Shown: piece by piece, positions 22,516 to 54,446 of the stretch
Layout of the letters: the number at the start of each line of letters is the position of its first letter
How positions within the stretch are numbered: position 1 is the stretch's first letter
Source of the DNA: an uncultured Clostridium sp.
GTDB taxonomy: Bacteria > Bacteroidota > Bacteroidia > Bacteroidales > Paludibacteraceae
DNA length: 64,000 nt
Assembly: GCA_963651555.1 (NCBI GenBank)
Contig: CAVJQD010000001.1
Span: 965 to 64,964, forward strand
Reading direction: 5' to 3'
The notes under the pieces: generated by a model
The model's input: the letters and a program-made list of their open reading frames with translations, nothing else
Told to the model about the DNA's origin: nothing
Databases searched by the model: none
Position numbers and translations under genes: made by a program

Positions 22516-22523
22516 TACCTTTG
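22516..22523 (+). promoter_or_regulatory. -7 promoter box TACCTTTG
   Basis: TAnnTTTG match about 93 nt upstream of the ATG at 22617. Confidence 0.5.
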
Positions 22524-34243: not shown

Positions 34244-34251
34244 AGTATCGT

Positions 34252-35523
34252 ATGTTTCTCTCGTTACTTAAACAAGAAGTCGTACCGGCCATTGGTTGCA
34301 CCGAACCGATTGCAGTTGCACTCTGCACCGCCAAAGCACGGGAGCAGTTGGGTGCGATGCCCGTGGATATAAAGGTTCAACTAAGTAAGAATATCTATAA
34401 GAATGCGCTATCGGTAGGTATCCCCAACACAGGCATGACGGGTCTGTCTATAGCCATCGCCCTTGGGGCTACGATTGGGCATAGCAGCAATCAGTTAGAA
34501 GTGTTGTGCGACGTTTGTCCCGAAGCCGTAACGGAAGCGAAGGCGTTCCTAAAGAGAGTGCCTATCGATATATCGATCGACCCGAACGCACCCGATATTC
34601 TCTATATCCATGTTGAAGTCAAAGCCGAAGACGGACATACGGCGCAAGCCACGATAGAAGGTAGTCATACGCATTTTGTTCCTACCGACGAGGACACTGC
34701 CAATGGCGTGGGGAGACGCGTAGAGGCAAGTACAACGGAGACTGATAATTCGTTCTGCCTACGCGATGTGTACGACTATGCAACCACCGTCCCTCTCGCT
34801 GATGTCCACTGGTTATTGAACGGCGTACGCATGAATATACAGGCAGCCGAGACCTCTTTCACAGGTCATTACGGTCATGGGTTGGGTAAGCTTCTTCATG
34901 ATGCTGACCATCGAATCACTAATATATTTGGTAACACACTCTATACTAAGATTCTCGCCTATACGAGCGGGGCGTGTGATGCGCGTATGTCAGGAGCCAT
35001 GGTACCGGTGATGTCGAACTCCGGATCAGGGAACCAAGGGATATCATGCTCCGTGCCCGTCTATCTCTATGCGCAAGAGAACCACTGCACAGAAGAGCAG
35101 ACGCTGCGAGCACTCACACTGAGTAACCTCACGGTGATCTATATCAAGCAGTCGCTGGGTCGGCTCTCTGCCCTATGTGGGTGCGTAGTAGCGGCAACGG
35201 GTTCGGCTGCGGGCATCACCTATCTTATGGGCGGACAGTATGCAGAGATCACTTATGCTATCAAGAACATGATAGCCAACATCTCCGGAATGATATGCGA
35301 CGGCGCTAAGCCAGGCTGCGCACTTAAAGTGACGAGCGGTGTGAGCACCGCTATTCTCTCAGCGACACTCGCTATGCAGCACTCTTATGCCGACAGCACA
35401 GAGGGTATAGTGGAAGAGGACATCGATTGCACCATACATAACCTCACTCGCCTTGGTCGAGAGGGCATGACTCAGACCGACGACCTTATTCTTGATATCA
35501 TGCTACATAAGAACAACGACTAA
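34252..35523 (+). CDS. UPF0597 / serine dehydratase alpha-like (L-cysteine desulfidase family)
   Basis: N-terminus EVVPAIGCTEPIAVAL and a C-terminal CDGAKPGCALK motif. Confidence 0.8.
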   Translation: MFLSLLKQEVVPAIGCTEPIAVALCTAKAREQLGAMPVDIKVQLSKNIYKNALSVGIPNTGMTGLSIAIALGATIGHSSNQLEVLCDVCPEAVTEAKAFLKRVPIDISIDPNAPDILYIHVEVKAEDGHTAQATIEGSHTHFVPTDEDTANGVGRRVEASTTETDNSFCLRDVYDYATTVPLADVHWLLNGVRMNIQAAETSFTGHYGHGLGKLLHDADHRITNIFGNTLYTKILAYTSGACDARMSGAMVPVMSNSGSGNQGISCSVPVYLYAQENHCTEEQTLRALTLSNLTVIYIKQSLGRLSALCGCVVAATGSAAGITYLMGGQYAEITYAIKNMIANISGMICDGAKPGCALKVTSGVSTAILSATLAMQHSYADSTEGIVEEDIDCTIHNLTRLGREGMTQTDDLILDIMLHKNND

Positions 35524-35538
35524 CTAAACATCATCTAT

Positions 35539-37308
35539 ATGAAACGCTTATCTATCTCTCTTATCCTTCTTGCTTGCACCGTTTTTACTTTTGCGGAGAA
35601 GGTTGTTTACCAAGATGTCAATTACACGATCGATGTTGACCACTTCACCGCTGAAGTGACCGACAACCATCTTGCCTCGGGCGAACTCCTTATTCCCGAG
35701 ACTATAACCATTGAGCAAGCCACCTACACCGTGACAACAATCTGCGAGAAAGCCTTTAAGGGTTGCAAAGGACTCACCGGTATTGTTCTACCGCACACAC
35801 TTAAGCAGATCTACCGAAATGCGTTTGAGGGGACAGGTATCTACATCAATAAAGACAACTGGCAAGATGGGTTGCTTATCATAGACAGTTGCCTTATTGC
35901 TGCCGACAAGACCGTCAAAGCACGCTTCGTCATTCCCGAGAATGTGCGTCTTATTGCGGCAGGGGCTTTTCAGGGCAACAAGACCCTAACGGCAGTGGAA
36001 ATAACGCCTCAAATAACTGCTATTGACCACGAGACATTCCGTGACTGCAAGAATCTTACACGCGTTATTATCCCTAACACAGTCACTTCGATAGGCGAAG
36101 ATGCGTTCACCAATACAGGTATCTGGAACAATGAGAAGAAGTGGAAAAAAGGTGCGTTATACATTAACGAGTGCCTTATAGCCGTAAACGAGACGGCCCC
36201 TGCGAAGTTCGTTTTCAAGGCGAAGTTCCCAGTGCGCCTTATCGCAGCCGGTGCGTTTGCGGAAAACAAGCGCGTGACACAAGTGGTTATTCCCTCTACT
36301 ATCACCACTATCCCTGCAGCGGCCTTCTATAACTGCGAGAACCTTGTTTCGGTTACTATTCCTTCAAGCGTCAAGAGTGTTGGTAACTTCGCCTTTTATG
36401 GGTGTAAGTTACTCAAGACGGCGAAACTCCCAACGAACTTGCAATCTCTTGGCATGGGTGCTTTCTACGGGTGCGGTAATCTGCAGGAACAGGTACTATC
36501 GAACAACCTAACCGTCATACCGCAGGCTGCATTCTATCTCTGTCACGCATTCAAGCATATTACTTTCCCTGACCATCTTGAGAAGATCGACAATGGAGCG
36601 TTCACCGGATGCGGTAACTTGGAGGAACTGAAGTTCCCCGCTACTCTTAAGTATATAGGTGATTTAGCCTTCGCAGGCTGTGATAAGTTGCTTGAAGTAG
36701 TGATACCCGAGAAAGTGGTGAGCCTCAACAAAGGTACTTTTCAGGCATGCACGCATTTAGAGAAAGTGACGCTACCCGAAGGGACGTACGCCATAGGCGA
36801 TGAGGCATTCATGAACTGCATCTCGCTTGAGCGTATCAATGTGCCTAAGTCGACTTTCCGTATCGGTAAGCGTGCGTTTTTCAACTGTCAGTCGATGCGT
36901 GGCATACTCCTAATGGACCGTATCCATGTTATAGAGGAGGGCGCTTTTCAGCAATGCAAACTTCTTGAGGACATCGTTTTACCGGAGCAGTTACGCGTAT
37001 TGAGCAAGGGAGTGTTCTCGCAGTGCACTGGTCTAAGAGAGATCAAGTTCAATAAGAAACTTCATACGATAGAGGATGGGGCGTTCTTTGAATGCCGTCA
37101 TTTGCGCGAACTACAGTTCAGCGATAGTCTGCAGACGATAGGTGCAGAGGCGTTCATGAATTGTAATAATCTGCGTAAGATATCCTTCCCAGCCAAGTTG
37201 AAGAAGATAGGCGCATCGGCTTTCAAAGACTGCGAAAGCCTTCCTGCACCTATGCTTCCTTCTGAGATCGAAGTAGGAAAGAACGCCTTCAAAGGCTGCA
37301 AAGAGTAA
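35539..37308 (+). CDS. BspA-type leucine-rich repeat surface protein
   Basis: Signal peptide, then more than 15 repeats of the I-P-x-V-x-I-G-x-x-A-F-x-x-C pattern. Confidence 0.85.
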   Translation: MKRLSISLILLACTVFTFAEKVVYQDVNYTIDVDHFTAEVTDNHLASGELLIPETITIEQATYTVTTICEKAFKGCKGLTGIVLPHTLKQIYRNAFEGTGIYINKDNWQDGLLIIDSCLIAADKTVKARFVIPENVRLIAAGAFQGNKTLTAVEITPQITAIDHETFRDCKNLTRVIIPNTVTSIGEDAFTNTGIWNNEKKWKKGALYINECLIAVNETAPAKFVFKAKFPVRLIAAGAFAENKRVTQVVIPSTITTIPAAAFYNCENLVSVTIPSSVKSVGNFAFYGCKLLKTAKLPTNLQSLGMGAFYGCGNLQEQVLSNNLTVIPQAAFYLCHAFKHITFPDHLEKIDNGAFTGCGNLEELKFPATLKYIGDLAFAGCDKLLEVVIPEKVVSLNKGTFQACTHLEKVTLPEGTYAIGDEAFMNCISLERINVPKSTFRIGKRAFFNCQSMRGILLMDRIHVIEEGAFQQCKLLEDIVLPEQLRVLSKGVFSQCTGLREIKFNKKLHTIEDGAFFECRHLRELQFSDSLQTIGAEAFMNCNNLRKISFPAKLKKIGASAFKDCESLPAPMLPSEIEVGKNAFKGCKE

Positions 37309-37329
37309 CTTTTCATTGTCGGTACTGCT

Positions 37330-38157
37330 ATGTTGCTTTGTCCTAATGCCAAGGTCAATCTTGGGTTAAACATTGTGTCCCGTCGCGCAGACGGTTATCA
37401 CAATCTTGAGACGATCTTCTATCCTATTCCATTGTGCGACGCGTTGGAGGTCGAAAAAGACTCGACGGTGGAGGGTATTGCCTTCACCGCCGATGGCGAC
37501 TTTCGTCTCGACTGCGAGGATGCCGACAACCTTGTGTGTCGAGTCTATCGGCAGATGGCATCGAAGTACCCACTGAGTGGCGTGCGGGTTCGGTTGACGA
37601 AGCATATACCCTTCGGTGCAGGTCTTGGGGGAGGCAGTAGCGATGCCGCTTATATAGCCGTGGCACTCGATCGGTTGTTCGACCTACATCTGAGCACGGA
37701 GCAACTGCAACAAGAGGTACGAACGATGGGGGCTGACTGTGCGTTTTTCGTAGCGAATAGTCCCGCTTTTGCAACGGGTATCGGCGATGTGTTACACCCT
37801 ATCCCACTCTTGCTCAGTGGGTATGAGTTCGTCTTAGTCAAGCCAAACGATATTGCGGTGAACACGCGTACAGCGTATCAAGGGATAGTGCCGAAAGCGC
37901 CAGCCGTGTCGCTGCAAGAGGCTATCATGCAGCCTATCGAGCAGTGGCGAGATACCGTGGTGAACGATTTTGAGAGTTCAGTCTTTGCTGCCTATCCGAC
38001 TATAGGCGAGGTCAAAGAGACATTGTATGCCTTAGGAGCCCTCTACGCATCCATGTCGGGCAGCGGTGCAAGCGTGTTCGGACTGTTCAAGAATGGCACT
38101 CTACCTACCGACCTTCCTTTCAGCAATTGCTTTGTTTTCCGCACCGTTTTAGCGTAG
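37330..38157 (+). CDS. ispE: 4-diphosphocytidyl-2-C-methyl-D-erythritol kinase
   Basis: AKVNLGLNIV and the GHMP motif PFGAGLGGGSSDAA. Confidence 0.9.
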   Translation: MLLCPNAKVNLGLNIVSRRADGYHNLETIFYPIPLCDALEVEKDSTVEGIAFTADGDFRLDCEDADNLVCRVYRQMASKYPLSGVRVRLTKHIPFGAGLGGGSSDAAYIAVALDRLFDLHLSTEQLQQEVRTMGADCAFFVANSPAFATGIGDVLHPIPLLLSGYEFVLVKPNDIAVNTRTAYQGIVPKAPAVSLQEAIMQPIEQWRDTVVNDFESSVFAAYPTIGEVKETLYALGALYASMSGSGASVFGLFKNGTLPTDLPFSNCFVFRTVLA

Positions 38158-38203
38158 GATTTCTTAATAATCTTTTAAGGATTTTCTATTGAGATCCTTC
38201 GGA

Positions 38204-38236
38204 GGTGATTCGAAGGTGGTTCGAAGGTGGTTCGAA
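38204..38236 (+). repeat. 11-mer tandem repeat, 3 units
   Basis: GGTGATTCGAA GGTGGTTCGAA GGTGGTTCGAA, in a convergent intergenic region. Confidence 0.85.
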
Positions 38237-38437
38237 AATGCTCTTAACCTATTCTTAAATTAATTTTAAATAGTCAGTTAGTTCTAACCCGATTCCAACC
38301 CGACTCCTACCTGACACTTACCCAGAACTACCTGAGATGTTCAAGAGATGTATAGAAACCATCATTGAGAAGAGAGTGAGTGTGACGCTAACTATAATGA
38401 TGGGAAATGGGTGCAATTGAGAATAAGAATAACAAGT

Positions 38438-39607
38438 CTATAGCACAATCCGGAAAACCGTTCCTTCACCTTGGACGGACTGTTTGACAAAGATCTTCCC
38501 ACGGTGATACTGTTCGATGATACGCTTTGCCAACGACAGTCCTAAGCCCCAACCACGTTTCTTCGTTGTATAGCCTGGTTTGAACACATCCTGTATGCGT
38601 TTGCGTTCGATGCCTTTGCCCGTGTCCGTCACATCCATTATCAGCTTTCCTCCTGTGGCTTGCACAGAGATAGTGATAGTGCCTTTGTTCTCCATGGCAT
38701 CGACAGCGTTCTTGCAGAGGTTCTCTACCACCCACTCCATCAAGGTCTCGTTCATCTCGACCTGCACATCGGGCAAGGGTTCACCTGCCTGCAACACTTT
38801 CCCTTCGCATTGCACCACATAGTGCACCTGTTCGGAAGTGCGGGTTCGCATATAATCGACCGTACGCATCAGCACCTCCATGAGATTGCCCGACTTGAGT
38901 ACAGGGGCAGAACCTATCTTCGAGAAGCGATCGGCAATAGCCTGCAAACGATGGATGTCCTTATCCATCTCCAAGACAAGCGCATCCTCTGGGTGATTGA
39001 TCTTGAACAACTCACTACACGCATTAAGCGACGAGATAGGCGTTCCCAATTGGTGCGCAGTCTCCTTACTCAATCCTGCCCATACCATGTTCTGTTCGCT
39101 GCGCTGCGACATGAGCAGGGTGTAGATAACGATGATTACGAAAATGAATATCACCGCAAACTGAATATACGGGAAATAGTACAACTGCGTGAGCAGTTTC
39201 GAGTCCTCGTAGTAGATATACTGCACATCGTTGTCCGTAATGCGTACCTCGATAGGCGTCTTGTTCTCGCGCAAGTAACGAATCTTGTCCGCATAGAACT
39301 GCTCCACATTATGCTTGGGCTCGTCCACATTACGCGAAGAGAGCAGATGTCCCTCGGCATCCACCATATAGACAGGAATGGTGGTGTTTTGTTCGATGAT
39401 GTCAGTGAAGAAATCGATATTCGTATTCTCGTCCGCTAAGATAAGTTGCCGAGTAGCCTCCGCCCATGTCTCCACACGGTTGTGCTCCTCTTGCGCCAAC
39501 GAATGGGCAATATGATTGGTAAAAAGCATCGAGACCACCACAATGAAGGTAGCCACCAACAAAAACACTATCTGCCAAGGCTTTGAGAGATTCATCTGCA
39601 TATTCAT
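38438..39607 (-). CDS. Sensor histidine kinase with no adjacent response regulator
   Basis: Two TMs flank a periplasmic domain. H-box ETAHQLGTPISSL, N box NLCKNAVDAM, G boxes DTGKGI and GWGLGLS. I take the ATG at 39607 because the track start overlaps the promoter box. Confidence 0.85.
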   Translation of the reverse strand: MNMQMNLSKPWQIVFLLVATFIVVVSMLFTNHIAHSLAQEEHNRVETWAEATRQLILADENTNIDFFTDIIEQNTTIPVYMVDAEGHLLSSRNVDEPKHNVEQFYADKIRYLRENKTPIEVRITDNDVQYIYYEDSKLLTQLYYFPYIQFAVIFIFVIIVIYTLLMSQRSEQNMVWAGLSKETAHQLGTPISSLNACSELFKINHPEDALVLEMDKDIHRLQAIADRFSKIGSAPVLKSGNLMEVLMRTVDYMRTRTSEQVHYVVQCEGKVLQAGEPLPDVQVEMNETLMEWVVENLCKNAVDAMENKGTITISVQATGGKLIMDVTDTGKGIERKRIQDVFKPGYTTKKRGWGLGLSLAKRIIEQYHRGKIFVKQSVQGEGTVFRIVL

Positions 39608-39628
39608 ACACTTTTTGCTTTGCACCGA

Positions 39629-39636
39629 CAAAGGTA
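39629..39636 (-). promoter_or_regulatory. -7 promoter box TACCTTTG
   Basis: Minus-strand TAnnTTTG match 21 nt upstream of the ATG at 39607. Confidence 0.55.
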
Positions 39637-40113
39637 CGAGAAATTATCTGTACAACAAACGAAACCGACGACCTTCTTACGACTTCCTTACTACTTCCTT
39701 ACTATTTCCAACCATAAAACGCATAAAAAACGCATCATCAAGATACCTACTTTGGCACTATTCCGAAATATAAAAGCCGCTTCCTCATATCTTAACAGAA
39801 TATAGTACAAAACAGTGTCGAGACGATGAGCAAGTTTTATCGAAGGGATATCGAAGGGATAACGAAGAGATAGACTCATTTTGAGGACACCCGAAAATGC
39901 CCTCAAGACTCCAAAAATGCACTTGTTTTACACTATTCTATTAACAATTTGCAAGAAAAACATTAACGCCCATCTTTTCATGCCATCGTCTCTACCTATT
40001 CGTTTCGTTCCTTTTTCGAGTTCCCAGCACAAGAGAATCACAGCCAAAACGACAATTTGAAGAGGTTCAAAGAAATTTTTCCGTATTTGTTTTGCCACTT
40101 CAGAAAATAGCCG

Positions 40114-40121
40114 TAACTTTG
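40114..40121 (+). promoter_or_regulatory. -7 promoter box TAACTTTG
   Basis: TAnnTTTG match about 110 nt upstream of mce. Confidence 0.45.
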
Positions 40122-40231
40122 TGCCAAATTGGGTTTACGGATTTAGACTGCAAATTTAGGCAATGGAAAGCCGCCTAAAGACGACCCTTTTGAATATAAA
40201 TAACTAACCCTTATTAAAAACCTAATCAACA

Positions 40232-40645
40232 ATGAAACCAACTCATATTGAGCACCTTGGTATCGCTGTAACAAGTTTAGAAGAGGCAATGCCTTTCTTC
40301 GAGTTTCTCACTGGTGAAAAATGCTACTCTATTGAGGAAGTAGCCGATCAAAAAGTACGTACCGCCTTCTTCAAGGTAGGTCAAACAAAGATTGAACTGT
40401 TGGAAGCAACAAGTCCCGATTCTTCTATCGCAAAGTTTATTGAGAAGAACAACGGACGTGGTGGTGTACACCATGTAGCCTTCAACGTGGAGAGCGTAGA
40501 AGAGGCCCTCAAAGAAGCAGAGGCTGCAGGTATCCAACTCATCGACAAAGCACCTCGCAAAGGCGCTGAAAATCTCATGATTGCATTCCTTCACCCAAAG
40601 AGCACGAAAGGCGTACTCACCGAACTCTGCCAACAACCGAAATAA
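40232..40645 (+). CDS. mce: Methylmalonyl-CoA epimerase (VOC family)
   Basis: HLGIAV, KIELLE and GGVHHVAF motifs, and the position ahead of the mmd genes. Confidence 0.85.
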   Translation: MKPTHIEHLGIAVTSLEEAMPFFEFLTGEKCYSIEEVADQKVRTAFFKVGQTKIELLEATSPDSSIAKFIEKNNGRGGVHHVAFNVESVEEALKEAEAAGIQLIDKAPRKGAENLMIAFLHPKSTKGVLTELCQQPK

Positions 40646-40651
40646 TTGGTG

Positions 40652-40721
40652 CTACGCACGTTAGTGGTTGCACGTTGGTGGTTGCACGTTGGTGGTTGCA
40701 CGTTGGTGGTTGCACGTTGAT
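40652..40721 (+). repeat. 14-mer tandem array, 5 units (GGTTGCACGTTGGT)
   Basis: Three perfect units at 40666-40707 with degenerate units on each side. Confidence 0.85.
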
Positions 40722-40729
40722 AATAGATT

Positions 40730-41116
40730 ATGACTATATACAACTTTGAAGACTTGGTTATCTGGCAAATGTCGAGAAAACTCATTAAGGACATCTATTC
40801 CACTATGAGTTCTACTCACGATTGGGGTTTTCGAGACCAAATACAACGAGCTGCAGTTTCGATAATGAACAATATTGCAGAGGGGTTTCAAAAACACCGT
40901 TTCACCAAAGACAACAAGACTTTCATTAGTTACCTATCAATCTCGTATGGCTCGTGCGGCGAGGTAAAGAGTATGCTTTATTTAGCAGAGGACTTAGGTT
41001 ATCTAACAGCTAACGACGCTCTACGTTTTCGACAAGACTGCGTAAATATCGAGTTTAAGATAGAGAACCTTATCAAGTCACTCAAACCACAACAGCCTAC
41101 GAACGTAAAATCATAA
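40730..41116 (+). CDS. Four-helix-bundle protein (23S rRNA intervening-sequence protein family)
   Basis: FEDLVIWQMSRKL, QIQRAAVSIMNNIAEGF and SYGSCGEVKSMLYLA match the TIGR02436/PF05635 pattern. Confidence 0.85.
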   Translation: MTIYNFEDLVIWQMSRKLIKDIYSTMSSTHDWGFRDQIQRAAVSIMNNIAEGFQKHRFTKDNKTFISYLSISYGSCGEVKSMLYLAEDLGYLTANDALRFRQDCVNIEFKIENLIKSLKPQQPTNVKS

Positions 41117-41219
41117 ACATGAAATCATGAACATGAAATCATAAACATGAACTAACGAACGTGAAACCATAAACATGAAATCATAAACATGAAATCATGA
41201 ACATGAAATCATAAACCAA
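41108..41219 (+). repeat. 14-mer tandem array, 8 units (AAATCATRAACATG)
   Basis: Units read in register from 41108. The ORF stop (41114-41116) lies inside unit 1. The array ends in a poly-A just before the mmdA ATG. Confidence 0.85.
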
Positions 41220-41227
41220 AAAAAAAG

Positions 41228-42784
41228 ATGGACAACAATAAATTGCAAAAGCTGATAGATAACCGCGCTAAAGCACAAGCAGGCGGCGGCGAAGCAGCAG
41301 TAGAAAAACATCACGCTAAAGGCAGTTACACTGCTCGTGAGCGTATTAATATGCTCCTCGATGAAGGTTCGTTCGAGGAAGTAAACATGTTCCTCACCCA
41401 CCGTTGCCACGACTTCGGTATGGAGAAGAAAGTATTCCTCGGTGACGGTGTTGCCGTAGGTTCAGGTACTATCGATGGCCGACTCGTATTCGTCTTCGCA
41501 CAAGATGCTACCGTCATTGGTGGTTCACTGAGCGAGACTATGGCGCAGAAGATATGCAACGTCATGGACCAAGCCATGAAACTGGGTGCACCTATCATTG
41601 GTCTCAACGACTCAGGTGGAGCACGTATCCAGGAAGGTGCATGCGCACTGGCAGGTTATGCAGAGATATTCGAGCGTAACATCCTTGCCAGCGGTGTCGT
41701 GCCACAGATCAGCGTCATCTTTGGTCCTTGCGCAGGCGGTGCTGTATATAGCCCTGCACTAACCGACTTCATCATGATGACCGAGCAGAACTCCTACATG
41801 TTCATCACCGGACCAAAGGTAGTGAAATCAGTAACCGGTGAGGACGTGAGCGTAGAAGACCTTGGCGGCGCTAAGGTACACGCTACCAAGTCAGGTGTTA
41901 CCCACTTCGTAGCAGCCACCGAAGAGGAGGCTCTGCAGGAGGTTCGCCGACTCATCAGTTTCATTCCACAGAACAATATGGAAGAGGCTCCTCTCGTACA
42001 GTGCACCGACGATCCAATGCGTGTAGAAGAGGCACTGAACGAAATCGTTCCGGACGATCCTAACAAGCCATACAACATGAAGGACATCATCAACCTTATC
42101 GTGGATAATGGCGACTTCATGGAGGTGCAGAAAGACTATGCAAAGAACATCATCTGCGGATTCGCTCGTTTCAACGGCCGTTCGACCGGTATCATCGCTA
42201 ACCAACCAAGTTGGCTGGCAGGTGTTCTCGACTGCGATGCAAGCCGTAAGGCAGCCCGTTTCGTACGCTTCTGCGATGCTTTCAACATCCAGATACTGAC
42301 CCTCGTTGATGTTCCCGGTTTCCTCTGCGGTACAGGACAAGAGTACGCCGGTATCATCGACCACGGAGCAAAACTGATGTTCGCTTACGGCGAGGCTACT
42401 GTGCCTAAGGTAACCGTAACAATCCGTAAGTCGTATGGTGGCAGCCATATCGTGATGAGTTGCAAGCAACTACGCGGTGACGCATGCTACGCATGGCCCA
42501 ATGCAGAGATAGCCGTAATGGGTGCAAGCGGTGCTGTAGGCGTTCTACAAGCCAAAGCACTCAAAGCCATTGAAGACCCAGAGGAGAAGAAGAAGTTCAT
42601 TGCCGAGAAAGAGGCAGAGTACAAAGACCTCTTCGCAAGTCCTTATCAGGCTGCTAACCGCGGATATATCGACGATATCATCGAGCCGCGTAACACTCGT
42701 AAACGTATCATCCATGCTTTTGAGAACCTGCAGACCAAGCGCCTGACCAACCCTCTCAAGAAGCACTCTAATATTCCATTGTAA
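41228..42784 (+). CDS. mmdA: Methylmalonyl-CoA decarboxylase alpha subunit (carboxyltransferase)
   Basis: Acyl-CoA carboxyltransferase fold. GGSLSE, NDSGGARIQEG and ITRKSYGG-like (TIRKSYGGSHIVM). Confidence 0.9.
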   Translation: MDNNKLQKLIDNRAKAQAGGGEAAVEKHHAKGSYTARERINMLLDEGSFEEVNMFLTHRCHDFGMEKKVFLGDGVAVGSGTIDGRLVFVFAQDATVIGGSLSETMAQKICNVMDQAMKLGAPIIGLNDSGGARIQEGACALAGYAEIFERNILASGVVPQISVIFGPCAGGAVYSPALTDFIMMTEQNSYMFITGPKVVKSVTGEDVSVEDLGGAKVHATKSGVTHFVAATEEEALQEVRRLISFIPQNNMEEAPLVQCTDDPMRVEEALNEIVPDDPNKPYNMKDIINLIVDNGDFMEVQKDYAKNIICGFARFNGRSTGIIANQPSWLAGVLDCDASRKAARFVRFCDAFNIQILTLVDVPGFLCGTGQEYAGIIDHGAKLMFAYGEATVPKVTVTIRKSYGGSHIVMSCKQLRGDACYAWPNAEIAVMGASGAVGVLQAKALKAIEDPEEKKKFIAEKEAEYKDLFASPYQAANRGYIDDIIEPRNTRKRIIHAFENLQTKRLTNPLKKHSNIPL

Positions 42785-42786
42785 TT

Positions 42787-43161
42787 ATGATACTATTAGC
42801 AGCAACAGAAGTAACGGGCGTCAACTCGTTTATCTGGATGGTGACAGGTGTCGGTTTCTTGTTAGTGATTATCCTACTATTCGTCTTCGTGTATATCATG
42901 AAGTTGATGGGTTGGATCATGCAACCACGCGTGAAAGCAAAGAAACAAGAGAACGACACGCATGCCGAGAGCGTTGCACACACACAGAAGGAAGAGAAAG
43001 AGCATATCACATTGACAGCCGACTGTACGGCTGCCATTGCCTTGGCTCTGCATCTCTACTACAATGGCGTGCACGACGAAGAAAATACCAAAACAAATGT
43101 TCAACCTCACCGTACACAATGGAACAATAAGTTGTACGGCATGAATAATCTGCATAGATAA
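42787..43161 (+). CDS. mmdD: OadG-family small membrane subunit (delta)
   Basis: Single N-terminal TM, a charged linker and AAIALALHLY. Position between the alpha and biotin-carrier genes. Confidence 0.7.
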   Translation: MILLAATEVTGVNSFIWMVTGVGFLLVIILLFVFVYIMKLMGWIMQPRVKAKKQENDTHAESVAHTQKEEKEHITLTADCTAAIALALHLYYNGVHDEENTKTNVQPHRTQWNNKLYGMNNLHR

Positions 43162-43164
43162 AAG

Positions 43165-43893
43165 ATGAAATCATTTCAGTTCACAATCGACGGTCGTAAG
43201 TATGAGACGACTGTCAATGAGATAGAAGATAGCGTAGCAGAGGTAACCGTGAACGGTACGACCTTCCATGTTACCATCGACCAGACCAAGAAGGCTACCT
43301 CTATTCGTCCTGCCGCTGGGCGTAGCGCTGCAGCAGCACCTCGTGCCGCACAACCAGCAGGCACTGTGTTAGTAAAGAGCCCACTGCCAGGCAGCATCGT
43401 AAAAGTAGTAGCCGCAGCCGGTCAAGCCGTTAAGAAAGGTGACTTGTTGCTCACTATGGAGTCCATGAAGATGGAGAACCAGATAACGAGTGAGTACGAT
43501 GGTACCATTAAGAATGTGCTTGTACAAGCCGGACAAAATGTGATGCAAGACGATAAACTCGTTGAGATAGAGACAGTAGCCGTGGCTGCTACTCCTGCAC
43601 CAGAACCAGCACCTGCAGCACCTAAGGCTGCACCTGCTGCACCTAAGGCAGAGGCTCCTAAAGCAGAAGCACCCGTTGGCGGTAAGAAGATCGTATCGCC
43701 ACTGCCAGGTAGCGTCATCAAAGTGCTCGTGAGCGAGGGTCAAGCCGTTAAGAGAGGCGACACACTGGTTACACTCGAATCGATGAAGATGGAGAATGCT
43801 ATCCAAGCCGACTGCGACGGTACCGTATCGAAAGTGTGCGTCGCTGCAGGACAGAATGTAATGCAGGACGACCTGCTTGTTGTACTCGGATAA
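43165..43893 (+). CDS. mmdC: Biotin carboxyl carrier subunit with two biotinyl domains
   Basis: Two ESMKMEN attachment motifs (Lys codons 43468-43470 and 43786-43788) separated by an Ala/Pro linker. Confidence 0.85.
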   Translation: MKSFQFTIDGRKYETTVNEIEDSVAEVTVNGTTFHVTIDQTKKATSIRPAAGRSAAAAPRAAQPAGTVLVKSPLPGSIVKVVAAAGQAVKKGDLLLTMESMKMENQITSEYDGTIKNVLVQAGQNVMQDDKLVEIETVAVAATPAPEPAPAAPKAAPAAPKAEAPKAEAPVGGKKIVSPLPGSVIKVLVSEGQAVKRGDTLVTLESMKMENAIQADCDGTVSKVCVAAGQNVMQDDLLVVLG

Positions 43894-43903
43894 TTGCAGG
43901 ACT

Positions 43904-45205
43904 ATGTGGTATGATGATATAATAAGTTTCTTCGGGACAATGGGATTTATGAACGCAGATTGGCGTCAGATAGTGATGCTGTTTGTGTCGTTCTTCCTGT
44001 TGTACTTGGCGATAAAGAAACAATACGAGCCACTATTGCTCTTGCCTATTGCCTTTGGTATGTTGCTTACCAACCTGCCAAATGCGCACATGTTCAACCA
44101 AGAGTTGTGGGATCTCTTCCTTGCAGAAGAACTATTCTATGACCCGAACACAGTCGACATCAACAGTATCTCGAGTATCCTCGAAGCCTATCGTAACGGA
44201 CTGTTAGTCGATGCCGCACATAGTGTGGATGGGATGACGGCTATTGTCAATCCATCGTATCATAGTTACGGTGCGGTGATGAAAGAGGCTGGTTTGCTTG
44301 ATGTACTCTATATCGGTGTGAAAGCAGGATTGTATCCTTGCCTTATCTTCATCGGTGTAGGTGCGATGACCGACTTCGGACCACTGATTGCCAATCCTAA
44401 GTCTCTGGTGTTGGGTGCCGCAGCACAGTTAGGTATCTTCATTACCTTCCTTTGTGCCAACGCATTAGGTTTTACTCCCGCAGAGGCAGGTTCTATCGGT
44501 ATCATCGGTGGTGCAGACGGACCTACATCCATCTTCTTGACTACCCGATTGGCACCGCAACTCTTAGGACCTATTGCTATTGCAGCATATTCCTATATGG
44601 CATTGGTACCGGTTATCCAGCCACCTATCATGCGACTGCTCACGACCGAGAAGGAACGCAAGATCAAGATGAAACAGCTGCGTTCGGTAAGCAAGACCGA
44701 GAAGATTGTCTTCCCAATCATTATCACAGCCATTGTGTCTCTCATCTTGCCGGATGCAGCACCGCTTATCGGATGCTTGATGTTGGGTAACTTGATGAAA
44801 GAGTGCGGCGTAGTAGACCGTCTGAGCAAGACTGCACAAAACGAGTTGATGAACATCGTTGTCATCTTCCTTGGTTTGTCGGTGGGTGCAACAGCCACTG
44901 GTGCTACCTTCCTCAATGTCAAGACATTGCTTATCCTTGCTATGGGTATCGTAGCATTTAGTATTGCCACAGCCGGTGGTGTACTCTTTGCTAAGTTAAT
45001 GAACCTCTTCTCGAAGGACAAGATCAACCCGCTTATTGGTTCAGCCGGCGTATCGGCAGTGCCTATGGCAGCCCGCGTGAGCCAGATAGAGGGGCAGAAA
45101 GCCGACCCAAGCAACTTCCTTCTCATGCACGCCATGGGACCAAATGTGGCAGGTGTTATCGGCTCTGCAGTAGCAGCTGGTATCCTCCTAAGTATGCTCG
45201 GTTAA
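43904..45205 (+). CDS. mmdB: Na+-translocating decarboxylase beta subunit
   Basis: OadB-like polytopic protein (YEPLLLLPIAFGMLLTNLP, GGADGPT, GSAGVSAVPMAAR). The ATG at 43904 fits the OadB N-terminus alignment. Confidence 0.9.
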   Translation: MWYDDIISFFGTMGFMNADWRQIVMLFVSFFLLYLAIKKQYEPLLLLPIAFGMLLTNLPNAHMFNQELWDLFLAEELFYDPNTVDINSISSILEAYRNGLLVDAAHSVDGMTAIVNPSYHSYGAVMKEAGLLDVLYIGVKAGLYPCLIFIGVGAMTDFGPLIANPKSLVLGAAAQLGIFITFLCANALGFTPAEAGSIGIIGGADGPTSIFLTTRLAPQLLGPIAIAAYSYMALVPVIQPPIMRLLTTEKERKIKMKQLRSVSKTEKIVFPIIITAIVSLILPDAAPLIGCLMLGNLMKECGVVDRLSKTAQNELMNIVVIFLGLSVGATATGATFLNVKTLLILAMGIVAFSIATAGGVLFAKLMNLFSKDKINPLIGSAGVSAVPMAARVSQIEGQKADPSNFLLMHAMGPNVAGVIGSAVAAGILLSMLG

Positions 45206-45218
45206 GACATAACCTTTC

Positions 45219-45259
45219 CAATAGAGCGTTGCCCACAATAGGCGACGCTCTATTGTTAT
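45219..45259 (+). terminator. Hairpin terminator after mmdB
   Basis: 11-bp perfect stem CAATAGAGCGT / ACGCTCTATTG with a 15-nt loop and a weak TTAT tail. Confidence 0.5.
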
Positions 45260-45313
45260 GGGATGTTCTAAAAATTGCTTTTGAGATGATTTGTGGAATT
45301 TTTAGAACGTCCC
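45260..45313. mobile_element. Mini copy (54 bp) of the MITE-like element
   Basis: GGGATGTTCTAAAAATT + 20 nt + AATTTTTAGAACGTCCC. Its reverse complement matches the two ends of the 10618-10812 element. Confidence 0.6.
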
Positions 45314-45337
45314 TTATAAAAGACAACCAACTCGCAC

Positions 45338-45778
45338 ATGGAAACGAAAGATATTATTAGTCGATTAGAGAACAAGTCGGTGAAGCCGACCGTCAATCGC
45401 ATCTTAGTCTATAACGCATTGGCTCAGATGGGTAAACCTGTGAGCCTGCGAGACATGGAGGAAGAGATGCTTGAACTGGACAAGTCGAGTATCTTTCGTG
45501 TACTGACGCTCTTTGCGGAGCACGATGTAGTGCATGCTTTCGAGGACGGCCGGGGCATACTGCATTACGAGTTGTGTCACCATCATGAAGGCGAATGCCA
45601 CCATACCGATGGGCATCTGCATTTCTATTGCGAGACCTGTCAACAGTCGTTTTGTCTCGAAGATACACCTATTCCTACCATTCACCTACCCGAAGGCTTT
45701 ACGCCTCATTCCATTTCTTTTGTCGTCAAAGGCGAATGCCCAACCTGCGCCGCCAAGCACAAGACTACGGGAGAATAG
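45338..45778 (+). CDS. Fur-family metalloregulator
   Basis: N-terminal winged helix, a His/Cys patch HHHEGECHHTDGH, and two CxxC pairs (CETC, CPTC). Confidence 0.85.
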   Translation: METKDIISRLENKSVKPTVNRILVYNALAQMGKPVSLRDMEEEMLELDKSSIFRVLTLFAEHDVVHAFEDGRGILHYELCHHHEGECHHTDGHLHFYCETCQQSFCLEDTPIPTIHLPEGFTPHSISFVVKGECPTCAAKHKTTGE

Positions 45779-45781
45779 GAT

Positions 45782-45816
45782 GATTAACAGTTAATTATTA
45801 ACAATTAACAGTTAAG
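45782..45816. repeat. AATTAAC-type heptamer array (5 units) containing a 7-1-7 palindrome
   Basis: GATTAAC AGTTAAT TATTAAC AATTAAC AGTTAAG. GTTAAT-T-ATTAAC is a perfect palindrome. Confidence 0.8.
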
Positions 45817-45887
45817 CATAGTCAACAGCATCTAATCATCGAGCGATAGTAGTCACACAATGCAACCGAGTTGCAACACACAGTCCA

Positions 45888-45895
45888 TACCTTTG
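45888..45895 (+). promoter_or_regulatory. -7 promoter box TACCTTTG
   Basis: TAnnTTTG match 31 nt upstream of the ATG at 45927. Confidence 0.55.
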
Positions 45896-45926
45896 CAGCA
45901 AAAAGGAAAAGGATACTGCACAGAAT

Positions 45927-47816
45927 ATGGAAAAAGAGACTCGCAACACGCTAATCAAGATTATCGCAGCCACTATCCTCTTAGTGGCATGCATCGTGAT
46001 AGAACATACCCTTGCACTGCCCACTTGGCAACTGCTACTCATCTACCTCGTTCCGTATCTCATTGTTGGCTTTGACACACTCCGAGAAGCCGTCGAGAAC
46101 ATCGTACACGGAGAAGTGTTTGACGAGGACTTCTTAATGTCGATAGCCACTATCGGTGCGCTCTGTATCGGCTTCTTTCCTGGAGTAGATAACCAGTTTC
46201 CCGAGGCGGTATTCGTGATGCTCTTCTTCCAAGTAGGCGAGTTGTTTGAGACGATAGCCGAAGGCAAGAGCCGCCAATCGATAGCCTCACTAATGAATAT
46301 CCGTCCCGACACGGCACACGTAGAGCGAGACGGAGCAGTCCTTACTATCAGCCCCGACGAGGTACAGATAGGCGAAGTGCTAATCGTCAAGCCAGGAGAG
46401 CGTATCCCTATCGATGGCGAAGTGATAGAAGGCGACTCAGCACTCGACACCGTTGCCCTCACGGGCGAGAGTGTACCACGCAGCGTGCATGTAGGCGACA
46501 GTGTCATCTCGGGTTGCGTCAACCTATCGGGCGTGTTGCGCGTACGCACCACACGTTTAGCAGGCGAGTCGACTGCCGCCAAGGTGCTCGAACTCGTGGA
46601 GAACGCCAGCGAGAACAAGTCGCGCAGCGAGACCTTTGTCACTCGATTCGCACGAGTATACACCCCTATCGTAGTCGTAATGGCAATGCTACTATCGTTC
46701 ATACCACCACTCTTCACCGCCGAAGCCTACCTCACAGCACTACCTACTTGGCTCTATCGAGGACTGATGTTCTTGGTAGTCTCCTGCCCATGTGCGTTAG
46801 TCATATCCGTACCCCTCTCGTTCTTTGGCGGCATTGGAGGCGCATCGAGGCACGGTATCTTGGTGAAAGGATCGAATTACTTAGAGGCACTAAGCCGCTT
46901 AGACACGGTAGTGTTCGACAAGACGGGCACGCTCACACGCGGTGTATTCTGTGTCACATTGGTTCACCCACACGACATCTCGGAGAACGAGTTACTGCAT
47001 CTGGCGGCGCATGTGGAACGGTACAGCAACCATCCTATCGCCATCTCGCTGCGTCAAGCCTACCCCAACGAAGCCGACGACTGTCGTGTGGAGCAAGTAG
47101 AAGAGATAGCAGGGCAAGGCGTGAAAGCCATGGTCAACGGCAAGCAGGTATGCGTGGGCAATGGCAAACTGATGACGGCGATAGGTGCCGATTGGCACGA
47201 GTGTTCAGATCAGGCACGAGGTACGGTCATCCATGTGGCAATAGACGGTGTCTATGTGGGACATATCGTGATAAGTGACCTACTCAAGCCCGATGCGGCC
47301 CGTGCTATTACCGACCTCAAAGCGGCTGGCGTCCGACAGAGTGTGATGCTCACAGGCGACCACCAAGCCGTGGCTCAGTATGTAGCAGAGCAGGTACATG
47401 TAGACGCTTTCCATGCCGACCTGCTGCCGCAAGACAAGGTGACGCAAGTAGAACAGTTGTTGCAAGCCAAACCTACGAACCGCACACTGGCTTTTGTAGG
47501 TGATGGTATCAACGATGCACCCGTGTTGGCTCGGGCCGATATAGGCATCGCTATGGGAGCACTCGGTTCGGAAGCCGCTATCGAAGCCGCCGATGTAGTG
47601 CTAATGGACGACCAACCGAGCAAGATTGCACTGTCCGTACGCATCGCCCGAAAGACCATGCGCATTGCCAACGAGAACGTCTATTTCTCTATTACCGTCA
47701 AGATATTGGTGCTGTTACTCGCTGCCCTCGGCATAGCGAATATGTGGATGGCGGTGCTCGCAGATGTAGGCGTGACCGTCATAGCCGTGCTCAACGCCAT
47801 GCGGACGCTGCACTAA
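45927..47816 (+). CDS. Heavy-metal P1B-type ATPase without an N-terminal metal-binding domain
   Basis: CPC motif (VSCPCALV), DKTGTLT, HP motif SNHPIA and GDGINDAP. The protein starts directly in TM helices. Confidence 0.9.
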   Translation: MEKETRNTLIKIIAATILLVACIVIEHTLALPTWQLLLIYLVPYLIVGFDTLREAVENIVHGEVFDEDFLMSIATIGALCIGFFPGVDNQFPEAVFVMLFFQVGELFETIAEGKSRQSIASLMNIRPDTAHVERDGAVLTISPDEVQIGEVLIVKPGERIPIDGEVIEGDSALDTVALTGESVPRSVHVGDSVISGCVNLSGVLRVRTTRLAGESTAAKVLELVENASENKSRSETFVTRFARVYTPIVVVMAMLLSFIPPLFTAEAYLTALPTWLYRGLMFLVVSCPCALVISVPLSFFGGIGGASRHGILVKGSNYLEALSRLDTVVFDKTGTLTRGVFCVTLVHPHDISENELLHLAAHVERYSNHPIAISLRQAYPNEADDCRVEQVEEIAGQGVKAMVNGKQVCVGNGKLMTAIGADWHECSDQARGTVIHVAIDGVYVGHIVISDLLKPDAARAITDLKAAGVRQSVMLTGDHQAVAQYVAEQVHVDAFHADLLPQDKVTQVEQLLQAKPTNRTLAFVGDGINDAPVLARADIGIAMGALGSEAAIEAADVVLMDDQPSKIALSVRIARKTMRIANENVYFSITVKILVLLLAALGIANMWMAVLADVGVTVIAVLNAMRTLH

Positions 47817-47821
47817 TAGCC

Positions 47822-48928
47822 TCAGCGGACAGGTGCATCCTGCAAACCCCAACCGGTGATGGTAGCAATGTATGGGATAACTGAGTAGGCTATCTTCTGA
47901 TGACCGATGTAGTTTGGGTGCCAAGACGCCCCAAGGTCGGAGTCGCTATTGTGCATAGCAGGACATAGCCCAAGGTAATAGACATTGTTCATGCCGCAGG
48001 TATTGACCATCTCACGCACATACGTGAAGAGATACTCGTGCGCCTTCGAGGTGATGCACAGCACAGGATGGTCCTCCCCGTAGTTCGCCTTTATCTCACG
48101 CAGGAGTTTGTAGTATTGGTCACGGAACGTCTCGTACTTTGGCTGCATAGACACAGAGAAGTCGTTACCGCCCAAGTAGATAACCGTCATAGCCGGACGA
48201 AAATCGGACTTCGAAGCATCCCAACGCGTAGCCTGAGTGGAGTCCATATCGAAGGTCTGCATATACCGTTCGGGCATGCACCAACCGCTGTACTTCGAGT
48301 TGTAGTTGCGCGCAATACCCATGCCCGAATGCGCCACTGCCACATAGTCCGCACCGAAGTAACGAGCCACAATAGCCGGAAAAGTCTTGTTGCAGTTCTC
48401 TGTCTCAGGCGTGAAAGGATCGTTTCTATCACTACTCTCCGTGCCATACCCACAGGTATAACTATCGCCAATGAACTCGATCTGCCGCTCGGCAAGAGGC
48501 GACGCTGGGTAGAACCTATCGGCCGTGAACTCGAGGATGGTAGTAGTCCCTTGCTCTCCTTCCGTACGCTTTTGCAGAATCACTTCGTGCCGCCCTCGGC
48601 GAGTCTTGTTGACCGCATCGTCGGCTGCCACGAGCGTGATGAGAGAGTCGTGCCCAAAAGTAGCAATCACGCGGCTAGGCTCATCGCTCGTAGGAGCATC
48701 AATCCACATGTTATAGTAGTTCTTATGCGTGTCCGACACGCGCATCGTGAGCGTCTTACCCGAATAGACAATGCGCACCGTAGTGGAGGTCCAGTCGAAT
48801 GACACCGCACCGCCATCGACAGCCGTTCGACCGATATAGACAACACGCCCGTCGTTAGCAGGAATCGTCTCCGCCGACAAACCAAAGGCAAACAAAAGCA
48901 ACAAGGACAATAGTTCGAATCGTTTCAT
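47822..48928 (-). CDS. SGNH/GDSL hydrolase (CE2-like carbohydrate esterase)
   Basis: Signal peptide, N-terminal beta-sandwich-like region, FIGDSYT (GDS), GGNDF, and a HPNYIGH end block. Confidence 0.75.
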   Translation of the reverse strand: MKRFELLSLLLLFAFGLSAETIPANDGRVVYIGRTAVDGGAVSFDWTSTTVRIVYSGKTLTMRVSDTHKNYYNMWIDAPTSDEPSRVIATFGHDSLITLVAADDAVNKTRRGRHEVILQKRTEGEQGTTTILEFTADRFYPASPLAERQIEFIGDSYTCGYGTESSDRNDPFTPETENCNKTFPAIVARYFGADYVAVAHSGMGIARNYNSKYSGWCMPERYMQTFDMDSTQATRWDASKSDFRPAMTVIYLGGNDFSVSMQPKYETFRDQYYKLLREIKANYGEDHPVLCITSKAHEYLFTYVREMVNTCGMNNVYYLGLCPAMHNSDSDLGASWHPNYIGHQKIAYSVIPYIATITGWGLQDAPVR

Positions 48929-48950
48929 AGAAGATATAAAAGGTTAGTAA

Positions 48951-49994: not shown

Positions 49995-50158
49995 CAACAT
50001 TTTTGCGATAGAACAATGTCCCCTCCGCAATTCCCACCGACAAACCCAAGACTCCTACCCGACAATCCACCGACATCCGCCCAATAATCCGCCGACGCCA
50101 ACACGACTCCACAAGCCCCACGCATGCCGCACTTCTCGGGCGTATAACCCTACCATAT

Positions 50159-50204
50159 CCCTAGCACTACCCTAGCACTACCCTAGCACTACCCTAGCAC
50201 TCCT
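50159..50204 (+). repeat. 12-mer tandem repeat, about 4 units (CCCTAGCACTAC)
   Basis: Read directly from the sequence; the last unit is truncated. Confidence 0.85.
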
Positions 50205-54061: not shown

Positions 54062-54194
54062 TGTTGTATGTATTTTTGTTAGTTAATCCTTGTTATGAGG
54101 TTGGTTTTAGCGACTTGTAAGCCACCTATCGGCAAGTTATATGCACTTTATAGGTAAGTTGCCTGCTCTCTATCGGCATGTCAACTCAATCCCA

Positions 54195-54260
54195 CAGTCA
54201 TGCCAACCCAACCTCGCAGTCATGCCAACCCAACCCCGCAGTCATGCCAACCCAACCTCG
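54195..54260 (+). repeat. 22-mer tandem repeat, 3 units
   Basis: CAGTCATGCCAACCCAACCYCG three times. Confidence 0.85.
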
Positions 54261-54263
54261 CTG

Positions 54264-54271
54264 CAAAGATA
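54264..54271 (-). promoter_or_regulatory. -7 promoter box TATCTTTG facing the alkaline phosphatase gene
   Basis: Minus-strand TAnnTTTG match directly abutting the 22-mer array. It implies a leader of about 200 nt, so the call is tentative. Confidence 0.35.
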
Positions 54272-54314
54272 GGGCATATTTTCCGTCTAAACAATACCAC
54301 CCAACCAACACCCC

Positions 54315-54446
54315 ATTCGTCCCGAAAAGTGTAAGAATCACCTCAACATTCGTCCCGAAAAGTGTAAGAATAGAGTCAATGTTCGTCCGAAAAAGTGTAA
54401 GAATCACATCAACATTCGTCCGAAAAAGTGTAATATCCATTGTGTA
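54315..54446 (+). repeat. 33-mer tandem repeat, 4 units
   Basis: ATTCGTCCSGAAAAGTGTAAGAATCACMTCAAC-like units at 54315, 54348, 54381 and 54414. Confidence 0.85.

Follow-up and report, generated by a model that had tools for sequence, protein, structure and literature searches.

A candidate intervening-sequence-type gene cassette in the methylmalonyl-CoA decarboxylase operon of a Bacteroidales bacterium

An open reading frame (ORF) of the 'S23p' type occupies the 23S rRNA intervening sequence (IVS) that Coxiella burnetii carries (helix 45), where it lies in sense orientation in a loop that is closed by a stem of complementary border sequences. The mapped RNase III cuts fall in the middle of this stem, two to three copies of the heptamer GACAGAT precede the ATG in a number that varies between strains, and the ORF is reported to be decaying and probably untranslated (PMC4990558). 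The purpose of rRNA IVSs and of their S23p ORFs has been an open question since the early 1990s, and the cases studied are awkward ones, with ORFs that are decaying or untranslated and that sit inside essential rRNA. Here we describe a segment of similar layout at a junction between protein-coding genes: the 582 bp between mce and mmdA, at positions 40646-41227 of a 64,000-nucleotide stretch (hereafter the window) of contig CAVJQD010000001.1, from an uncultured bacterium placed in the Paludibacteraceae. We consider it probable, at roughly 0.6, that this segment is an IVS-type gene cassette resident in an mRNA operon instead of an rRNA gene.

Related genes have been met in other settings. The family PF05635 also matches Avd-like proteins of diversity-generating retroelements, or DGRs (PMC10053308). 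In bacteria of the candidate phyla radiation (CPR), rRNA genes contain insertions with LAGLIDADG, GIY-YIG and 23S_rRNA_IVP ORFs (PMC11270868). Genes of the 23S_rRNA_IVP type are found between cmr3 and cmr2 in cas loci, where they were left unexplained (PMC3936711), and one lies between gmk and nadD in a Flavobacterium genome paper; both cases fit the operon-junction pattern described below. A literature search that left subscription journals largely outside its coverage, so that a prior mention is possible, returned no description of IVS-type cassettes outside rRNA. Operon-resident elements of this type are apparently a widespread and seemingly undescribed kind of selfish insert.

The mce-mmdA segment of the window

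The only long ORF in the 582 bp that separate mce from mmdA (40730-41116, plus strand) encodes a 128-aa four-helix-bundle protein. It matches PF05635 (23S_rRNA_IVP; E 1.2e-27, 96.7 bits against a curated cut-off of 33.8) and TIGR02436 ('four helix bundle protein'; E 4e-27, 94.5 bits, cut-off 24), which bears out the genes, the spacing and the family that an earlier note had read from the sequence. The same note had placed five 14-mers before the ORF, and here the sequence, Tandem Repeats Finder (TRF) and a repeat search agree. The 5' arm (40652-40721, plus strand) consists of five tandem 14-nt units with the consensus GGTTGCACGTTGGT, of which three are exact and are framed by one degenerate unit on either side; the units are built on an internal 7-nt sub-period (TRF: 40656-40719, period 14, 4.6 copies, 98% matches). 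The array begins 6 nt past the mce stop and ends 8 nt before the ATG of the ORF.

On the 3' side, the eight AAATCATRAACATG units reported at 41108-41219 are present, with the TAA stop (41114-41116) inside the first of them (TRF: 41108-41216, period 14, 7.8 copies). The array extends further than had been noticed: with an extra degenerate unit upstream it effectively begins at 41099, and the 3' arm as a whole (41099-41219, plus strand; found by the same three means) amounts to some 8.6 tandem 14-nt units with a 56-nt higher-order repeat (1.9 copies, 92%). The last ~6 codons of the ORF and its stop are encoded by this array. Two types of unit occur, ACGAACGTRAAAYC, a close complement of the 5' unit, and ATRAACATGAAATC, which is drifted and A-rich. 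The array terminates in CCAAAAAAAAAG just ahead of the mmdA start, and a poly-A tract, AAAAAAAG (41220-41227, plus strand), abuts the mmdA ATG; A-rich tails like this one are also seen in the related loci L095 and L081. We considered and dropped the idea that the 3' units (ACATGAAATCATAA, ATG AAA TCA TAA) act as mini-ORFs relaying ribosomes to mmdA, as the units of other elements contain no ATG or stop.

The consensus units of the two arms can form 9 Watson-Crick and 2 G·U pairs over 14 positions (P ~0.02 by unit shuffling, all 14 phases considered). This is the count given before, and it had overlooked a variant 3' unit, ACGAACGTGAAACC (41155-41168), with 12 of 14 Watson-Crick pairs to the 5' unit (P ~0.0004). 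A minimum-free-energy fold of 40640-41235 pairs both arrays (z -3.0, 0/100 shuffles), and the duplex taken by itself has an energy of -54.1 kcal/mol over 60 pairs (z -3.5, 0/100 shuffles). In the cofold of the arrays that the earlier note had called for, the gain is -21.2 kcal/mol, compared with -14.8 +/- 3.8 for shuffles, which is only z -1.7 (4/100). The predicted paired stretches are 40646-40724 and 41069-41170. Positions 41171-41227 are predicted to be single-stranded, which leaves ~57 nt of 3' array and poly-A tract unpaired ahead of mmdA, in effect an A-rich leader made of the last array units and the tract. Of the stem of ~70 nt previously proposed around the ORF, the pairing of the arrays in the minimum-free-energy fold is upheld, and the cofold gives it marginal support, the 3' arm having drifted. 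Taken alone, the window stem is marginal to moderate, suggestive but not compelling, and it becomes convincing only through comparison with related loci.

The protein is predicted to be an up-down four-helix bundle like XCC0516 and BT_0352. An AlphaFold2 monomer model has four helices at a predicted local distance difference test (pLDDT) score of 90, and Foldseek aligns this model with 2GSC and 2RLD, each deposited with five chains, at template modelling (TM) scores of 0.76-0.85 and root-mean-square deviations of 1.5-2.0. The subfamily profile matches the PDB entry 2GSC (XCC0516, pentameric) at E 6e-24. Residues R40, S44, N48 and E51 are invariant in both protein alignments and correspond to GxxRxxxSxxxNxxE, the conserved motif of the PF05635/TIGR02436 family (PMC3936711); the first motif position in the window subfamily is Q37, not G. 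The protein is mildly basic (pI 8.5), and no nuclease motif is recognised in it. Purifying selection on the ORF is strong: it differs from that of a conspecific locus, L188, by 11 nucleotides and by one amino acid, which falls in the repeat-encoded tail (ratio of nonsynonymous to synonymous divergence, dN/dS, 0.037). Against the closest other orthologues dN is 0.126, with dS at saturation for the ORF and equally for mce and mmdA. Reading the protein as part of a defence system or a phage finds no support, neither PADLOC nor PHROGs giving a match, and a scan of viral contigs found no relatives. A link to HEPN-type helical nucleases was likewise set aside: the alignment contains no conserved Rx4-6H motif, and no literature link was found.

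Arrays, junctions and history across the family

The subfamily of the window ORF has 3166 database homologues at E < 1e-10, and a metagenome scan added 80 loci from many habitats. For 86 non-redundant elements, and for 113 ordinary genes from the same loci as controls, we paired the 5' flank with the 3' flank, the latter including the last 60 nt of the ORF, and expressed the duplex energy as z against dinucleotide shuffles. The median z of the elements is -3.8, with 78% below -2, 63% below -3 and energies reaching -124 kcal/mol; that of the controls is -0.10, with 7% below -2 (Mann-Whitney p 1e-24). Tandem arrays occur in the flanks of 83% of elements versus 32% of controls, and if only array-bearing flanks are compared the medians are -4.1 and -0.37, respectively (p 1e-12). 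Array periods cluster at 7/8/9 and 14/16 nt. The own 3' flank of an element ranks first of 79 candidates in 21 cases (1 expected) and among the top three in 40. At the median, the 5' arm stops 3 nt short of the ATG, the 3' arm overlaps the final 19 nt of the ORF and the stem has 51 pairs. The inverted-array layout is a general, non-random property of the four-helix-bundle ORF family. The earlier note had proposed to test whether other four-helix-bundle ORFs of the genome each have inverted arrays of their own; across the loci compared here most do. The likeness to rRNA IVSs that had been drawn for the window holds for most of the family, both in the pairing of the flanks and in the match to the anatomy of the Coxiella IVS (PMC4990558).

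Two strong outliers among the controls, the gltD-like gene of L095 and mmdA of L006, have in their flank an ORF-less hairpin of cassette-like build, to which we return below. The control set also includes a small ORF upstream of mce (L003:3459-3852), which encodes a signal-peptide protein with repeated 'VKxKIVDxFED' motifs and whose flanks pair at z -6.0.

The elements share their setting as well as their build. They are co-oriented with the upstream neighbour in 70 of 72 cases and with the downstream neighbour in 67 of 75, at median gaps of ~72 and 77 nt. For distant members (54-64% identity), all retrieved contexts lie between co-directional housekeeping genes, at the junctions nadE|dsbD, cobW|gltD-like, nqrD|nqrE, nqrE|nqrF and pyrH|frr, and copies at different junctions share 50-65% protein identity. 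The nqr operon of L095 contains two such cassettes, L095:8898-9269 at nqrD|nqrE and L095:10001-10384 at nqrE|nqrF, each with inverted arrays of its own whose unit sequences differ (GAATACAGA-type versus CGTTAAA-type). When the arms of these two cassettes were cross-paired, the energies did not cleanly part own from foreign arms, because the arms are AT-rich.

The mce|mmdA junction itself was compared across relatives, as the earlier note had proposed, by a scan for Mce with one genome per species. It yielded 80 loci, of which 79 have both genes; most bear the labels of Bacteroidales from gut and rumen ('Paludibacteraceae' among others). The gap measures 5-200 bp in 74 of these 79, and the cassette is confined to a few close relatives: L008, L009, L010 and L012 have a homologous four-helix-bundle ORF at the junction (56-79% identity), and protein look-ups and the metagenome scan added L081-86, L117, L121, L187 and L188. 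Every occupied junction has repetitive flanks of its own, the 3' flank being the inverted counterpart of the 5' flank. In L004-L007 and L038, Mce and MmdA are as close to those of the window as in the carriers, yet the ORF is missing. The 582-bp segment is, judged by this comparison, an insertion, because the junction is empty in most relatives. Filled and empty junctions have diverged at dS >1, too far for insertion boundaries to be defined. Other material is found at the same place in some genomes. The 'empty' junctions of L001, L004, L007 and L018 are made of tandem 7-9-mers, and that of a Bacteroidaceae metagenome-assembled genome (L059:4408-4885) holds a different small-ORF cassette, in which a 100-aa GIY-YIG ORF (PF01541, E 5e-16) lies within the inverted repeats GTCATTCAGAGCGAAGCGAAGAATCTCG ... 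CGAGATTCTTCC..GTCTGAATGAC.

The arrays differ in copy number between near-identical loci: a 16-nt unit is present 3, 5, 11 and 14 times in L087-L090, and the array copies number 3 and 2 in L091 and L092, and 2 and 3 in L101 and L102. The window and L188 have five and six 5' units, respectively, together with point differences; the L188 contig stops inside the 3' array. An alignment of the four closest orthologues reveals a compensatory pattern that recurs in every unit, at two positions per unit. In arms of the L081 type, 5' ACGTT/GGTT stands opposite 3' AACGT/AACC (C-G, G-C), and in those of the L083 type 5' ATGTT/GATT stands opposite 3' AACAT/AATC (U-A, A-U). The arms of the window are a half-changed intermediate, with an L081-type 5' arm and an L083-type 3' arm, so that each unit has one C·A mismatch besides one G·U pair. 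The arms are still recognisable between orthologues despite dS >1.

In a neighbour-joining tree without bootstrap, the proteins group mostly by junction. All mce|mmdA cassettes form one clade, with one nadE|dsbD cassette nested inside; a second clade is made up of the cobW|gltD cassettes and encloses two further junction types. Together with the distribution among relatives, this tree fits old insertions, vertical inheritance, frequent loss and occasional relocation; rapid transposition does not fit. Independent insertions were considered as the source of divergent ORFs at one junction, but given the grouping by junction and the saturated dS, an old insertion followed by divergence is at least as likely. 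The 64 kb of the window hold one cassette. Of the mobile cassette suggested earlier, the insertion and the emptiness of the junction in most relatives are upheld; the tree suggests long vertical residence at mce|mmdA with repeated loss, not recent mobility.

Host operon, possible mechanism and competing readings

The host operon is that of methylmalonyl-CoA decarboxylase, with all its genes on the plus strand. Upstream of the cassette lies mce, the gene for methylmalonyl-CoA epimerase (40232-40645; TIGR03081, E 5.8e-43, above cut-off). Downstream lies a block at 41228-45205 made up of mmdA (41228-42784; Carboxyl_trans, E 4e-192) and of the genes for the gamma subunit (42787-43161; OAD_gamma), the biotin carrier (43165-43893; two Biotin_lipoyl matches) and the beta subunit (43877/43904-45205; OAD_beta). 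Pfam searches of the eight neighbouring genes gave ispE, a histidine kinase, mce and mmdADCB. The biotin-carrier gene contains an internal duplication (43420-43478 and 43738-43796, a 59-nt repeat at 78% identity) that results in two biotinyl/lipoyl domains.

A pattern scan predicts a promoter of the Bacteroidetes consensus type (TTTG-N19-TAACTTTG) upstream of mce at 40091-40121, on the plus strand. There is no match to this pattern inside the cassette (40646-41227) and no other from 39660 to 63159; the cassette and mmdA are therefore presumably read from 40091-40121. The pattern TTTG-N17-23-TAnnTTTG has five matches in the window versus 1.07 expected (11933-11964, 22492-22523, 39629-39659 on the minus strand, 40091-40121, and 63160-63191 on the minus strand), each just upstream of a gene start, and these matches are useful as markers of transcription units in the window. 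A scan for sigma-70 promoters and intrinsic terminators was abandoned for this pattern, being uninformative for a Bacteroidetes genome. Rfam, at gathering thresholds, found no rRNA or other family in the whole window, and a permissive search of 40200-41600 returned nothing relevant.

If the segment is an IVS-type cassette, one could envision the following course of events. Transcription from the operon promoter would read through the promoterless cassette. The arms would pair in the transcript, so that the ORF is looped out and the mce stop is brought close to the mmdA leader. RNase III might then cut the long duplex and separate the mce, ORF and mmdADCB RNAs, as it does in the 23S IVSs of Coxiella and Leptospira from which we draw the analogy. 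The unpaired A-rich 3' units and the poly-A tract would provide mmdA with an unstructured translation leader, and we propose that the insert is tolerated for this reason; such a role in translation would be in keeping with how initiation generally works in Bacteroidetes. The element, inherited for the most part vertically and now and then lost or transferred, would persist as a selfish passenger in operons that are conserved and highly expressed, its arrays turning over by replication slippage while the arms are kept matched.

Several observations weigh against this picture. The stem of the window is weakened, with a cofold z of -1.7 and an own 3' partner that ranks 12th of 79. The 5' arm pairs with the 3' flank of L008 at -47 kcal/mol, compared with -21 for its own; the 3' arm of the window lineage has therefore drifted toward A-rich units, and the '~70-nt stem' is in the window a weakened version. 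Pairing of the flanks is weak in L009 and L012 as well (z about -1.2 to -1.5). RNase III cleavage in an mRNA cassette is argued purely by analogy, and a cut that parts mce from mmdA could come at a cost. The cassettes are not accompanied by a transposase or nuclease gene, and the scan of viral contigs found no relatives. Finally, the sense strand of the elements is not more stable than the antisense strand (it is better in 35 of 86, with a mean difference of +2.2 kcal/mol). A G·U signature of selection at the RNA level is thus missing, and an origin at the DNA level is equally compatible with this test.

It is possible, if on balance unlikely, that the hairpin acts as DNA. Its arms might be terminal inverted repeats, or might form a cruciform or a single-strand hairpin, that serve insertion, precise excision or recombinational spread, and the RNA stem would be a by-product. 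Such a role is in line with the lack of sense-strand G·U bias and with the ORF-less hairpins of like build. One of these is found at mce|mmdA of L006 (L006:4412-4535), with the arms (ACGATTT)3 ... (AAATCGT)n. Two more, L095:3816-3935 and L095:881-1010 (minus strand), flank the gltD-like gene of L095 on either side, in MITE (miniature inverted-repeat transposable element)-like fashion, and share a common loop between arms of inverted tandem heptamers, (AAGTTGA)n / (TMAACTA)n. The ORF-less hairpins of L006 and L095 look like MITE-like relatives or remnants of cassettes, and their existence implies that arms can persist, or spread, without the ORF. A DNA-level role would also suit the patchy presence among equally close relatives, a copy number that varies as slippage at hairpins would give, and the GIY-YIG ORF with its own inverted repeats at the same junction in L059. 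However, unit sequences differ between elements, even inside one L095 operon, so that a single sequence-specific transposase is unlikely, and no transposase or nuclease gene is at hand. The clustering of proteins by junction and the saturated dS between orthologues likewise imply that cassette movement is rare. Strict co-orientation with host transcription would be needless for a pure DNA role, though ORF expression could explain it.

One might go a step further and speculate, with little expectation of being right, that the four-helix-bundle protein and its inverted tandem-repeat arms constitute a previously unrecognised class of autonomous genetic element. The pentamer would recognise the units that recur at heptad spacing in its own hairpin, whether this is RNA or single-stranded DNA, and promote upkeep or spread into hairpin loops of conserved, highly transcribed loci (rRNA helices, operon junctions); no transposase, recombinase or homing nuclease of a known kind would take part. 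In that event, rRNA IVSs would be a special case, noticed first, of a much larger, mainly mRNA family.

A function for the host seems improbable to us. Under such a scheme, the stem and the protein would have been domesticated as a regulatory module that tunes the mce : mmdADCB ratio, or how stable the downstream mRNA is, for instance by binding of the pentamer to the repeated units. The cassette has indeed stayed at mce|mmdA in lineages that have reached saturation at synonymous sites; purifying selection acts on the ORF, and the arms are recognisable between orthologues at dS >1. The 7/14-nt period of the units, the pentameric state of the family (2GSC and 2RLD, five chains each) and the presence of Avd, of shared fold, in an RNA-protein complex (8UB7) would also suit such a module. 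Yet the cassette is missing from most relatives with the same operon, including some as close as the carriers, and the same type occurs in unrelated operons (nqr, pyrH-frr, nadE-dsbD, cobW-gltD), which a passenger fits better; the protein, moreover, is only mildly basic.

Even less credit is due to the view that this is an ordinary small gene whose flanks are lineage-typical tandem repeats with chance complementarity, which we hold to be very improbable. The complementarity of the flanks is specific to four-helix-bundle ORFs, the variant unit reaches 12/14 (P 0.0004), the changes between orthologues are compensatory, and the 5' arm of the window pairs with an orthologue's 3' arm at -47 kcal/mol. 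These outweigh what would speak for chance, namely the abundance of intergenic tandem arrays in the window, the 16-23% of ordinary gene flanks in related loci that score as tandem, the unit-level P of ~0.02 and the cofold z of -1.7. A DGR remnant with the ORF as its Avd is effectively refuted: PF05635 does match Avd-like proteins (PMC10053308) and the predicted fold resembles Avd (TM 0.66-0.83 to 4DWL and 8UB7), but there is no reverse transcriptase among the neighbours, no template/variable repeat within +/- 8 kb, no sequence-level match to PDB Avd chains (identity 8-11%) and, in the scan of viral contigs, no relative, and all sampled relatives lie between housekeeping genes.

Returning to the IVS-type cassette, our results indicate that the IVS layout is the normal habitat of a very large family of four-helix-bundle proteins, most copies of which lie in mRNA operons of central metabolism, with the ORF there under strong purifying selection. 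The question of IVS function becomes testable in culturable gut Bacteroidales. The cassettes also matter for annotation and assembly. They split core operons such as nqr, mmd and pyrH-frr, and they could be mistaken for DGR Avd genes. Their hypervariable arrays break metagenome assemblies: many carrier contigs are <2 kb long, and L188 ends inside an array.

Other repeats of the window deserve a mention in their own right. Its intergenic DNA is unusually rich in short tandem arrays, with units of 7-44 nt in 2-5 copies, for instance at 11443-11949, 21812-22411, 38198-38311, 39668-39872, 50147-50201 and 54177-54433. A 17-mer, GGGATGTTCTAAAAATT, occurs four times versus 0 expected, at 10618-10812 and 45260-45313. 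Its copies are arranged as two inverted pairs, one with ~160 nt enclosed between them and one that makes a tight hairpin downstream of the mmd operon; they represent an inverted-repeat family of their own, MITE-like in character. Two long intergenic regions that are rich in repeats and 10.5 kb apart share a 131-nt direct repeat (11588-11718 and 22129-22259, 89% identical), which contains (TGTATCTACCG)x3. Each copy is followed, a few hundred nt downstream, by a promoter match (11933 and 22492), and the repeat may be a regulatory leader common to two gene clusters.

Comparison with known systems

Among short intergenic elements, the Correia/NEMIS elements of Neisseria, ERIC and REP/BIME have inverted ends, are placed between genes transcribed together and form folds in the mRNA. 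Correia elements are reported to undergo RNase III cleavage and to alter the stability of the flanking mRNA. All these elements are non-coding; they occur in many, nearly identical copies per genome and have defined termini and target sites. The ORF-less hairpins of L006 and L095 resemble Correia/NEMIS, ERIC and REP/BIME. The cassettes differ from these in that a conserved protein gene fills the loop and the arms are tandem arrays with element-specific units.

The rRNA insertions of CPR bacteria provide a second parallel, in that GIY-YIG and 23S_rRNA_IVP ORFs are passengers of conserved, highly transcribed loci there as they are in L059 and in the window, respectively. Many of the CPR insertions, unlike the present elements, are introns or carriers of homing endonucleases with known mobility; the four-helix-bundle protein has no nuclease motif that is recognised.

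With Avd of DGRs, the window protein shares the predicted four-helix bundle, the model scoring TM 0.66-0.83 against 4DWL and 8UB7, and a family that forms pentamers. The resemblance goes no further into the sequence, identity to 4DWL and 8UB7 being 8-11% and a sequence-level match to PDB Avd chains lacking, nor into the context, which is one of housekeeping operons with no adjacent reverse transcriptase and no pair of template and variable repeats. As the earlier note had remarked, neither is in sight: Pfam finds no RVT domain among the eight neighbouring genes, and 33000-49000 contains no template/variable repeat pair, the only direct repeats of at least 35 nt there being the 3' array and the duplicated biotinyl domain.

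The closest likeness is to the ORF-bearing 23S rRNA IVSs of Coxiella and Leptospira. The ORF family common to both is PF05635 ('S23p'). As in the rRNA IVSs, the window ORF reads in the sense direction of a host unit that is strongly transcribed, on the plus strand as are mce and mmdA, and it would lie in the loop of a stem between bordering complementary sequences. As in Coxiella, short tandem repeats whose copy number varies between strains stand directly before the ATG. Occurrence is sporadic among relatives in both, and ORF-less versions exist. The differences begin with the host, which is here the junction of a protein-coding operon and not an rRNA helix, the window containing no rRNA. Cleavage would cut a polycistronic mRNA, whereas the pieces of an interrupted rRNA stay joined in the ribosome, and the RNase III excision demonstrated in Coxiella would be expected of the window cassette by analogy. 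Both arms of the window type are long tandem arrays, of up to ~14 units. Lastly, in contrast to the decaying ORF of Coxiella, that of the window is under strong purifying selection, with a dN/dS of 0.04.

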